Assembly: GCF_013167455.1 (NCBI RefSeq)
Contig: NZ_CP038328.1
Source: Escherichia coli O157:H7
Lineage (GTDB): Bacteria; Pseudomonadota; Gammaproteobacteria; Enterobacterales; Enterobacteriaceae
Direction: 5' to 3' (one strand)
Length of the DNA: 64,000 nt
Part shown: in pieces, positions 6,001 to 9,000 of the stretch
How positions within the stretch are numbered: the first letter of the stretch is position 1
Layout of the letters: every line of letters starts with the position of its first letter
Made by a program: the position numbers

Positions 6001-9000
6001 TGCGCCTGACAGGCGGAACTTACAGGTCAGTCTGCCGCCCTGTGTCAGCAGGGTAATTGCGTCATCCACCGGATGCGTCAGGGACCAGGTTTTATTGCTC
6101 TGCCTGGTGATCTTAAATACACCATCTGACAACTGAATTCCGCCATCCTTAATGCTCCAGCCCTGCGCAGCAGCCTCTCCGGCTGCCGGCAGCAGGGAGA
6201 TTGTGCGAACGGACGTATCTGCAGACGGACCCGATGGCGTGTTGCCGCCGGGCGAGGGTTTGATTTCCGGTGCCTTACCACTGATGAAGGCTGAGGTGCG
6301 CCCGGCTGCGTTCAGAATAGCGGTTGCCATACGATCCGGAATAATGCTCCTGCGCGCCCATGAACTGAAATGTGTCGGGCGGTTTGATGATACCTGGTTT
6401 CCATTCGTTCTCGATGCCGCACCGTAATATCCTGATGCCGGAATATCCGGATCTTCTGCCGGCGCGTTAGTGGCGGTATTGACGCCGTTACCGTCTGTCA
6501 TGAAGGGCACAAAATAAACGCCCTCACTCTCCCTGTTTTTGTACGCCCCGTAAATGGTGTTGTACTGGGTGCCGTAGGTATTTTTCCAGTAATACGTCGT
6601 GTCACCACAAATCCACGGCACATCTGCAGCACTGCCACCATGGCACTGCGCGTTAAACACGGAGAGGTCAGCACGAAACTGTGCCAGCATGGCTGTAAAC
6701 AGCGCAGGTTGCTGTGCGTGGGTGGCGGCGCTCATGTCAAACTCTCCCTGCATCCAGCACACCGCCAGCAACACATTTTTCGGGTTCTTCTGTAATGCAG
6801 CTTTAGTGCGCGCAATCAGGTCCTGATATAACGGTTTACCCACACCCCAGCGCGCCGAATCCTGGCTGGCCCCCGCGTCCGCACTGAATGTCCCCTCCGC
6901 GCCCTGGGTGAATGCCGAACCACCACGACAGCATGGTACCAGCAGGATCCCCGCGTTATTCGGGATATACGGAAGCAGTTTTTTGGCAATATGTAAGCCC
7001 TGGCCGACACAGCCGTACTGCCCTTTGCTCAGGTCTGCCTTCGGATGATTCAGCGTACTCATATCCTGCACATCATGCAGGCAGTGGTCGGCCGGAATAA
7101 TATCGTTATATCTGCAGGCAGCCCCACCCGGCGTAACTGTACTGCGGCGCGCCAGCTGTTTAATGCGCGGATCCGGAGCATCGTATGAATCCGGCAGCGG
7201 AAGCCCTTCACCGTAAGCCATGGCATTGGACTGCCCGGCCAGTACGATGACGTAGTACCAATCCGGCTCAGTTGCACCACTGACCACCACATCACCTTCT
7301 GCTGTAATCACCTGCATCAGGGTATAAGGGGTTATGGCCACCGGACTACCAAACGGCTGCCAGCCCTCTTTCAGTTTGTGTGTCAGCTTTTCCGCAAGGT
7401 CTGACGGCGACGCCGCCCTGACAACATCATAATGTTTAAATGTCATTATTCCTCCCCTTTCCGGGATTTTCCTCAACAGTTGCGGGCCACGGTCCGGCCA
7501 CAAGGAGAATCAAAAGAGGAGAACCGCAGCCCGCAAAACGAAAAAGGCCGCGCAGTTGCGCAGCCTTATAAACCCTGGTTAAAATCCACACGATAAAAAT
7601 GACAATGCAAGTATCTCATGCTGTTGCCCGAACCCACTCGGGCTTTTTTTTGCATGTAAAAAGGCTCCTGCGATGAGAAGCCTGGATATATGCCTAATCT
7701 CTGTATACAGCATGATGCCGGGTGCCTCCCGGTGAATTCTGCAATGACCAGACAGAATCCGCAACTTGCCTATACAATACGCAACCAAACATCTGTCATT
7801 ATGCCCCGCCGCTCAGGGGGATTCATCATGCAGGATTTTTTTAACAAACGCTCAGCATGTCAGGCAACAGTCAACTGCCTGAATTGTGAGGCATTTAACA
7901 TTTCACTGTCCGGTGTCTTTCCTGTAATAAAAAGCCCGCAAAAGAGAGTCAGGGCAGATAAGTGTGGTGTGGTGCGTTGTACTGGATTCGAACCAGTGAC
8001 CGATTGCTTAGAAGGCAATTGCTCTGTCCGGCTGAGCTAACAACGCAGAATACCGATAATGGACCGCCACCGGGGACTCCGAATCTCGCACAGGGTGACG
8101 TTCTTTCCTGATGAGCTAGTGGCGGTTGGTGGCCCTTGCTGGATTTGAACCAGCGACCTGGCGATTATGAGTCGCTCGCTCTCACCGCTGAGCTAAAGGG
8201 CCGATTGCTGAATAATAACGACGCATGATTAACTCCGCAATCTCATCCGTTACGAATGATTAAATCCTGTACTTCCCGCACCGTCTGCTCAAAACGTTCA
8301 GTCTCCAGTTCAACGCCAGTTGCACGACGTCCCAGCGCCATCGCTGCTTTCACTGTCGACCCCGACCCCATGAAGAAATCTGCAACCAGGTCTCCCGGAC
8401 GACTGCTTGCGCTGATTATCTGCTGCAACATTTCTGCCGGTTTTTCGCACGGATGTTTCCCTGGATAGTACTGCACCGGTTTATACGTCCACACATCGGT
8501 GTACGGCACCTGCACCGTCACACCGAAATACCGCCGCAGATGCTTATATTCACTCTGCAGCTCCGCATACTGTCGGTTCAGAGAGGCATACGTATCCACC
8601 AGCTGGTGGTGGGGCTTTTCCAGTTCACCCCGCTGATGCTTCTCTTCTGCCACCCGGGCAAACAGTGCCTGTAATTTCAGATAATCGCTTTCGTTCGGCA
8701 GCTGCCACTGACCGGCACTGAACCAGTGCGACACCATGTTTTTCTTTCCTGTGGCATCTGCAATCTGTTTTGCCGTTATCCCCAGGACAGCGCGCGCATC
8801 ACGAAAGTAAGCAATCAGCGGGGCCATCACATGCTGTTTCAGTGTCCTACCCTTCGCCTCATACCCGGCATCTTTCGGACGATACGGCCCCTGATAATGC
8901 TCTGCGAACAGAATGCGCTCTGTGGCGGGGAAATACGCCCGCAGGCTTTCCTTGTTGCACCCGTTCCAGCGTCCGGACGGCTTTGCCCAGATGATATGGT

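Follow-up and report, generated by a model that had tools for sequence, protein, structure and literature searches.

Between the transfer RNA (tRNA) genes and nanS-p in the late region of an Escherichia coli O157:H7 prophage lies a stretch of 523 bp (7447-7969) which is blank in the RefSeq annotation, and the question raised by this locus is whether the gap is an unoccupied slot for the Shiga toxin (Stx) genes, as an initial sequence-only reading had proposed, or whether it has contents of its own. The gap is part of 64,000 nucleotides of contig NZ_CP038328.1 (RefSeq assembly GCF_013167455.1), referred to here as the window, and all positions are counted from its first nucleotide. We conclude with high confidence that this section of the window is the late regulatory region of Sp9, a prophage of the ompW-integrated 'PPompW' type with type III effectors and not Shiga toxin as its cargo, and that the 523-bp gap is a conserved small RNA (sRNA) module. 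The feature is already known, as the sRNA pair and the prophage have both been described previously: the convergent-sRNA arrangement was reported in 2014 by Tree et al. (PMC4104026), and the EcOnc03/EcOnc28 pair given there for Sp9 of E. coli O157:H7 strain Sakai, located between argO3 and ECs1781, is the same locus with no difference within the finding presented here. Its importance is mainly that of a correction, in that an intergenic region left blank by RefSeq holds two regulatory RNA genes, one of which ranks among the most abundant Hfq-bound RNAs in enterohaemorrhagic E. coli (EHEC).

The prophage was identified by comparison with Sakai, in which Sp9 is 100% identical to positions 5400-10600 of the window (5.2 kb); the window differs from Sakai by a few single nucleotide polymorphisms (SNPs), and the position of IS629 also differs. 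In Sakai, Sp9 is annotated as a lambda-like prophage with nleA, nleH, nleF, espO, nleG and espM at its far end, and the C-terminal ompW fragment found at the end of Sp9 indicates insertion in ompW, with collinearity with Sakai placing the prophage end in the window at about 24640. The nearest records in the phage database are 'PPompW' prophages, which cover 57-62% of the Sp9 part of the window at approximately 98% identity and are present either alone or inside composite Stx2a records. A 1-kb test stretch (7300-8300) was found with at least 99% identity in 351 complete-genome records. The region has the layout of a lambdoid late region, with Q followed by holin, endolysin and Rz genes on one strand (PHROG; Sakai ECs1778-1787).

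The sequence-only reading had seen no credible open reading frame (ORF) in the gap, and this was borne out, as the longest frames (69 and 116 aa) are not conserved and gave stops, frame changes or fragmentary alignments in tblastn comparisons with eight homologous loci. It had also described the gap as empty and holding only terminator-like hairpins, which was not upheld, since two known sRNA genes occupy most of it. Hairpins are present at 7544-7567 (-), 7626-7643 (+) and 7662-7683 (-), but the latter two, each with a U-run, are the terminators of the sRNAs EcOnc03 and STnc100, respectively. The STnc100 model (RF02076) matches 7652-7860 on the minus strand over its full length (model 1-206/206) with 175.2 bits versus a gathering value of 47 (E 8.5e-41), and EcOnc03 (7591-7650, plus strand) converges on it, a layout shared with Sp5 and Sp10. 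The hairpin closest to nanS-p belongs to a strong terminator on the late strand (Table 1), with a predicted fold of -18.3 kcal/mol and a z-score of -4.5 that was equalled by 0/200 shuffles, and this terminator contains the candidate -35 element of EcOnc03.

For EcOnc03, an exact match of 51 nt to the sequence printed in Tree et al. (2014) lies at 7597-7647, and a published read from RNase E-CLASH, in which cross-linked RNAs are ligated and the resulting hybrids sequenced, maps to 7592-7635 (+). The coordinates given in 2014 lie about 135 nt below those of the current Sakai record, as confirmed with both AsxR and EcOnc03, and mapping was done by sequence. In Sakai, EcOnc03 ranks third in abundance among the orphan Hfq-bound RNAs, giving Northern forms of 56, 54 and 51 nt with primary 5' ends and its own promoter in the lysogen (PMC4104026), and it is bound by Hfq and destabilised in a delta-hfq strain (PMC4104026, Table S2). 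The hexamers TTGCGC and TAAAAT are likely to form this promoter, judged by their sequence and position, and this candidate agrees with the primary 5' ends determined by RNA ligase-mediated rapid amplification of cDNA ends (PMC4104026). Among genome records, 545 contain the EcOnc03 sequence with no less than 99% conservation.

EcOnc03 has the anatomy of the prophage anti-sRNA family, i.e. a length of approximately 51-60 nt with a conserved 3' part of about 42 nt and a variable 5' end of 14-18 nt, and it also has the location typical of the family, in the interval from the moron site to nanS-p and antisense to the late operon. The AgvB model (RF02702) scored 56.6 bits against a gathering value of 56, with the score carried by the 3' part, and the AsxR model (RF02703) reached 46.8 bits versus a gathering value of 63. 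Alignment with AgvB1 and AsxR showed that the 3' 42 nt or so (hairpin and terminator) are shared, whereas the 5' 18-20 nt differ. With AgvB1 and AgvB2, the anti-GcvB sRNAs of Sp10 and Sp17, EcOnc03 has position, orientation and size class in common, and the 3' parts are nearly identical. However, the GcvB R1 target consensus CACAACA is absent from 7591-7655, which sets EcOnc03 apart from AgvB proper, and with its different 5' seed this means that sponging of GcvB cannot be assumed. The anti-FnrS sRNA AsxR of Sp5/933W-type phages occupies the homologous site, likewise runs antisense to the late operon and convergent with STnc100/EcOnc27, and has the same 3' scaffold, but AsxR has another 5' seed and lies downstream of stx2B, whereas EcOnc03 has no stx upstream.

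The convergent partner of EcOnc03 in Sp9 is EcOnc28, for which an Hfq peak was reported (PMC4104026), and a read assigned to EcOnc28 in the published RNase E-CLASH data falls at 7733-7794 (-). Our estimate of 7889 for the 5' limit comes from sequence comparison and is based on the start of homology and on the 235- and 247-nt Northern bands of the Sp5 paralogue (PMC4104026). The match is of the same kind as that of STnc100/EcOnc27/sRNA103, related to PasD of enteropathogenic E. coli (EPEC), with the full-length model matched at the same site directly upstream of nanS-p, but the Sp9 copy is a paralogue with approximately 76% identity to its Sp5 counterpart over the wider segment 7889-7339. In strain EDL933, 11 STnc100 copies are transcribed, with a Northern blot reported for one copy. 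Overexpression of EcOnc27 reportedly raises fimZ and espA transcripts, as cited in PMC12711010, an effect which is not transferable to the paralogous copy in Sp9. STnc100 is found directly upstream of nanS-p in Sp4, Sp5, Sp10, Sp11, Sp15, phi24B, phi296, Stx2a_WGPS2 and the Stx1c phage phiSTEC1589-Stx1c, whatever precedes it, and among the relatives compared with Sp9 an AsxR or AgvB match beside STnc100 was present only in Sp5, phi24B and Sp10. Tree et al. listed convergent sRNA pairs between a moron coding sequence and a conserved downstream ORF for Sp3, 4, 5, 9, 10, 11, 15 and 17 (PMC4104026).

Table 1. Features of the Sp9 late region, listed in the direction of late transcription (Sakai names where available).
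Feature	Position	Strand	Evidence
Q-like late antiterminator, DUF1133 type, ECs1778 homologue	9891-10433	-	PHROG 753 E 3.8e-74; Pfam DUF1133 1.3e-110
Orphan DNA (adenine-type) methyltransferase, ECs1780	8243-9301	-	PHROG DNA methyltransferase families
tRNA with CAT anticodon, ileZ (tRNA-Ile2)	8127-8202	-	ARAGORN; Rfam tRNA 70.9 bits; Sakai ileZ3
Decayed argN (tRNA-Arg-TCG) pseudogene	8047-8126	-	Alignment with intact argN of Sp5, Stx2a_WGPS2 and phi296
tRNA-Arg (TCT), argO	7970-8046	-	ARAGORN; Rfam 71.4 bits; Sakai argO3
Post-tRNA spacer, weak hairpin and T-run	7929-7969	-	Aligned to Sp5, WGPS2 and phi296
39-nt linker in place of the 1341-bp stx2AB cassette	7890-7928	-	Sp5 and Stx2a_WGPS2 breakpoints
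STnc100-family sRNA, EcOnc28 of Sakai Sp9, paralogue of EcOnc27/sRNA103 (5' limit estimated)	7652-7889	-	Rfam RF02076
EcOnc03, short Hfq-bound sRNA, AgvB/AsxR anti-sRNA family	7591-7650	+	Rfam AgvB; published sequence
Candidate EcOnc03 promoter	7556-7585	+	-35 TTGCGC, 18-nt spacer, -10 TAAAAT; start ~7591/7592
Strong intrinsic terminator, late strand, just upstream of nanS-p	7534-7567	-	10-bp stem with 7 G-C pairs, T-run
nanS-p, ECs1781, prophage sialate O-acetylesterase homologue	5593-7446	-	DUF1737, SASA and DUF6645 domains; PHROG 143

In this module, the late strand encodes EcOnc28, an STnc100-family sRNA with a predicted length of approximately 180-240 nt and its own terminator, and the opposite strand encodes the 51-56-nt EcOnc03 converging on it, which combines the Hfq-binding 3' scaffold of AgvB and AsxR with a 5' seed of its own. 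In the working that we propose, both Sp9 sRNAs may act in trans on host transcripts via Hfq in the lysogen, with EcOnc03 serving through its 5' seed as a sponge or regulator. The strong intrinsic terminator separates the sRNA module from nanS-p and the lysis genes, and the terminators together could confine transcription of the sRNAs and tRNAs and keep constitutive transcripts out of the downstream genes, and after induction the Q-modified polymerase would be expected to pass all of them. Related phages have stx placed between the post-tRNA hairpin and the predicted STnc100 promoter, where a 39-nt linker is found here.

Several observations weigh against this interpretation and have to be set beside it. 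The AgvB score for EcOnc03 barely attains its gathering value and the AsxR score stays under threshold. The single-sequence folds of EcOnc03 (z-score -1.8, not significant versus shuffles) and STnc100 (z-score -0.8, no better than shuffles) mean that structural support rests on the Rfam covariance models and the published data. For the STnc100 copy of Sp9, the 5' end and the promoter are predictions, and expression of both sRNAs in the strain of the window is extrapolated from Sakai, the strains differing as given above. Neither EcOnc03 nor EcOnc28 has a validated target, and in the top-ranked rows of CLASH Table EV7 the leading partner of EcOnc03 is the very abundant ompC mRNA, which pairs with the conserved part of EcOnc03 and not with the 5' seed. 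It could be argued that the elements of the gap function in cis only, in that the hairpins would serve the late operon as terminators or insulators and the Sp9 sequences resembling sRNAs would be neutral relics, a view with which the presence of three terminators within 150 bp on both strands and the lack of the AgvB GcvB-target motif in EcOnc03 would also agree. We nevertheless consider this very unlikely, given the abundance, primary 5' ends and Hfq-dependent stability of EcOnc03 in Sakai (PMC4104026) and its conservation among genome records, and because two family members have proven trans functions, with AgvB blocking the GcvB seed and AsxR destabilising FnrS. It is also opposed by the CLASH data, in which EcOnc03 has about 85 hybrid rows (estimated from 170 name occurrences); the top-ranked rows of Table EV7 include hybrids formed with ECs4425, with rRNA and with the coding region of ompC (7 reads for the latter, in replicates), and its gene ontology summary, the other part of the table used here, indicates that genes of cation and iron homeostasis (mntH, fieF, bfr) are enriched among the EcOnc03 targets.

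It is possible, albeit speculative, that EcOnc03 represents a third specificity of the prophage anti-sRNA scaffold, with its unique 5' seed GAUAAAAAUGACAAUGCA sponging a host sRNA or directly regulating mRNAs, and the CLASH data hint at ompC and the homeostasis genes named above as partners. Were this true, a prophage lacking the toxin would be rewiring riboregulation of the host alongside AsxR (haem, iron) of the Stx2 phage. Equally speculative, the sharp and reproducible boundary between the post-tRNA hairpin and the predicted STnc100 promoter may be a recombination joint for the exchange of stx and other cargo cassettes. The question of what EcOnc03 and the STnc100 copy of Sp9 target, and what role they have, has already been posed in the literature.

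A second published Hfq-bound prophage sRNA was noted at 2568-2634 (+), approximately 200 nt downstream of the Rz/endopeptidase gene. This is EcOnc12 of the EcOnc10/11/12 family, which has its own terminator and an exact match to the CLASH read ATAACAATAATAATCTTCTACCCAATCAGTACATTACTGCT, with 43 hybrids to ECs3642 reported in the part of the CLASH data used here; neither an Rfam family nor a RefSeq annotation exists for it.

The late region was compared with those of Stx phages. The order Q, methyltransferase, tRNAs, gene-free 523 bp and nanS-p described by the sequence-only reading holds, all on the minus strand, and an identical order including the methyltransferase is found in the Stx2a phage Stx2a_WGPS2. 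More generally, Stx2 phages of the Sp5/933W and Stx2a_WGPS2 types share the order Q, (methyltransferase), ileZ-argN-argO, STnc100, nanS-p, holin and endolysin, in some cases with an anti-sRNA, whereas Sp9 lacks stx2AB, has a decayed argN and a Q of the DUF1133 type, and is without a StxS-like region downstream of Q. The flanks of the gap do align to Stx2 phages: Sp5 is 76-81% identical, and Stx2a_WGPS2 reaches 90% across the methyltransferase and tRNAs. The alignment with Sp5 consists of two blocks, the first (8353-7929) covering the tRNAs and the hairpin after them and the second (7889-7339) corresponding to Sp5 DNA from 46 nt past the stx2B stop codon into nanS-p, so that 1341 bp of Sp5 (promoter, stx2A and stx2B) correspond to only 39 nt here (7890-7928). 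The breakpoints are the same versus both Stx2 backbones, Sp5 and Stx2a_WGPS2, with the latter having 90% identity over 9781-7929 (small ORF, methyltransferase and tRNAs), and beyond the methyltransferase-tRNA segment the flanks have 70-87% identity to the Stx phages compared. As the homologous counterpart of 7889-7339 in Stx phages is the segment downstream of stxB, which in Sp5 and phi24B contains STnc100 and AsxR, the 520 bp or so are not a vacated slot; most of the gap is also present in Stx phages, and no deletion scar was found.

The stx-negative phage phi296 also has the 39-nt linker, apart from one mismatch. The 3' part of the linker, AAATGTTAAAT (7893-7903), resembles a -10 box and is conserved upstream of STnc100 in Sp15 (after stx1B), in both STnc100 copies of the Stx1c phage and in phi296, and Sp4 has a partial element (TTTTAAAT) upstream of STnc100 with almost nothing else between the hairpin and this element. 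AAATGTTAAAT is probably the -10 box of a longer STnc100 isoform, which fits the 235/247-nt bands of the Sp5 paralogue, and if so there would be essentially no unassigned DNA left at the junction. The spacer between the tRNAs and the linker (7929-7969) is also found in Stx2 phages, ahead of the stx promoter, and is annotated in phi24B as 'putative rho-independent terminator upstream of the Stx genes', although its predicted fold is weak (-6 kcal/mol, z-score -1.4).

In the other Sakai prophages, the interval between the tRNAs (or Q) and STnc100 contains nothing in Sp4, as in Sp9, a tciA/terB-like gene in Sp10 and Sp11, stx1AB in Sp15 and stx2AB in Sp5. The stx-free junction was found in 490/5426 complete E. 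coli genomes, including serogroups O157, O111, O145 and O121, and in seven stx-free phage records, while a diverged copy is present downstream of the stx1c-STnc100 unit in the Stx1c phage. It is common to the stx-negative phages phi296, TL-2011a, PPwrbA and Lahn2 (96-97% identity over 78 nt), although phi296, TL-2011a and PPwrbA have a different Q, only a methyltransferase remnant and an intact argN. Within phiSTEC1589-Stx1c, positions 3805-4291 contain two tandem STnc100 copies downstream of stx1cB with a Sp9-type linker between them, and one of these copies is labelled 'hypothetical protein'; no tRNA genes were annotated or detected in this phage, and it looks as if a stx1c-STnc100 unit has recombined into a stx-free backbone.

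These comparisons bear on the original suggestion that the gap is a vacated or unfilled toxin slot, which would make Sp9 a Stx phage after a recent and precise stxAB deletion. The late region is indeed of the Stx type without toxin, which is the part of that suggestion that stood, and the shared order and 90% identity with Stx2a_WGPS2, the sharp and reproducible breakpoints that flank the stx2 cassette and the occurrence in some strains of Stx2a phages at or next to ompW prophages all speak in its favour. The empty slot and deletion scar did not stand, and we give the suggestion as a whole little credence: the 523 bp are homologous to DNA downstream of stxB, with the cassette replaced by only 39 nt, the flanks outside the methyltransferase-tRNA segment are just 70-87% identical to the Stx phages compared, Sp4 is likewise empty at this site, and a diverged copy of the junction lies inside a Stx phage. 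The search for stx remnants that the sequence-only reading called for gave only chance-level matches in the 64 kb of the window, both with Stx2A/B (tblastn) and with the 1341-bp cassette (blastn); there is no stxA and stxB in the late operon within the window, as would define a Stx-converting phage, the remainder of Sp9 in Sakai has no annotated stx, and the PPompW lineage is stx-free wherever it is seen on its own. The presence of the junction in 490 genomes is also a poor fit to a recent deletion scar. Nothing points to a recent loss of stx, although both an old loss and a toxin that was never acquired may be compatible with the data. The data fit an exchange of modules at conserved joints, the direction of which they do not give. 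For surveillance and for reasoning about toxin acquisition, the relevant site is the joint of about 40 bp and not a 520-bp hole, and the stx-free state is a common and stable allele in EHEC lineages.

That the gap might instead encode small proteins missed by annotation, for instance within the STnc100 transcript, has next to no probability in our view, since the frames of 69 aa (-) and 116 aa (+), the small ORFs placed here by PHANOTATE-type annotations in phi296 and phi24B and the appreciable ribosome coverage of some STnc100 copies in EDL933 (ratio up to 3.2) have to be set against the lack of conservation of these frames across homologous regions, the course of the 116-aa ORF antisense through tRNA-Arg, the TTG startcodon of the 69-aa ORF and its overlap with both sRNA terminators, the low coverage of most STnc100 copies and the absence of any RefSeq annotation.

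With regard to the protein-coding genes flanking the sRNA module, nanS-p is the first one past it and is followed by the holin gene, a YdfR-like gene and the endolysin gene. Its Pfam matches (DUF1737, 3.4e-14; SASA, 8.2e-12; DUF6645, 9.4e-18) and its site just upstream of the lysis genes identify the predicted product, on sequence grounds, as a NanS-p esterase, and at the nucleotide level the gene is approximately 70% identical to its counterparts in Sp5 and phi24B. The Q-like ORF gave a weak match to Phage_antitermQ and is labelled 'phage antiterminator' in Sakai. The label 'frameshifted DUF1133' given by the Prokaryotic Genome Annotation Pipeline (PGAP) in strain FDAARGOS_293 was rejected for the Q of the window, where the ORF is open and of full length. 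Domain matches for NanS-p and Q were supplied by Pfam, and a search of NCBIfam gave no match for either. The NCBIfam matches of the methyltransferase were partial and all under the curated cut-offs, and no restriction gene adjoins it. Comparison of the region downstream of Q with the Q-stx intergenic regions of Sp15 and Sp5, for a StxS-like sRNA or PR' region, showed no homology except for the segment directly upstream of the tRNAs. A strong hairpin with a T-run, a candidate tR' terminator, is located some 100 nt downstream of Q at 9770-9800 (-) (GGAAGCCACCGGAAGGTGGTTTTTTTG), and the homology to Stx2a_WGPS2 starts exactly at 9781, within this hairpin.

The tRNA 'cluster' noted in the sequence-only reading consists of two intact tRNAs, the middle member of the usual ileZ-argN-argO trio being represented only by a decayed argN, which lacks 12 nt in the anticodon stem-loop region, has point changes as well and was called by neither ARAGORN nor Rfam. 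Sakai Sp10 and Sp11 likewise list just ileZ and argO.

Other features were noted outside the late region. The early region of the prophage contains a copy of the insertion sequence (IS) IS629/IS1203 of the IS3 family (12471-13780) with an ALIL frameshift pseudoknot at 13329-13445. In FDAARGOS_293 the matching IS lies inside the late-region antirepressor gene, making the IS position strain-specific, and the prophages are otherwise more than 99.8% identical. Using the annotation of the near-identical FDAARGOS_293 for the positions of protein-coding genes, a sok antitoxin RNA (14142-14291, minus strand; Rfam 103.9 bits) adjoins a hokD-type toxin gene, and paa, encoding an AcfC-family adhesin, is located in the early region at approximately 14480-15238 (-). 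Far beyond the prophage, the chromosomal tyrT-tyrV locus is present at 50875-51609 (+), with two tRNA-Tyr genes and three RtT repeats (Rfam 118-134 bits).

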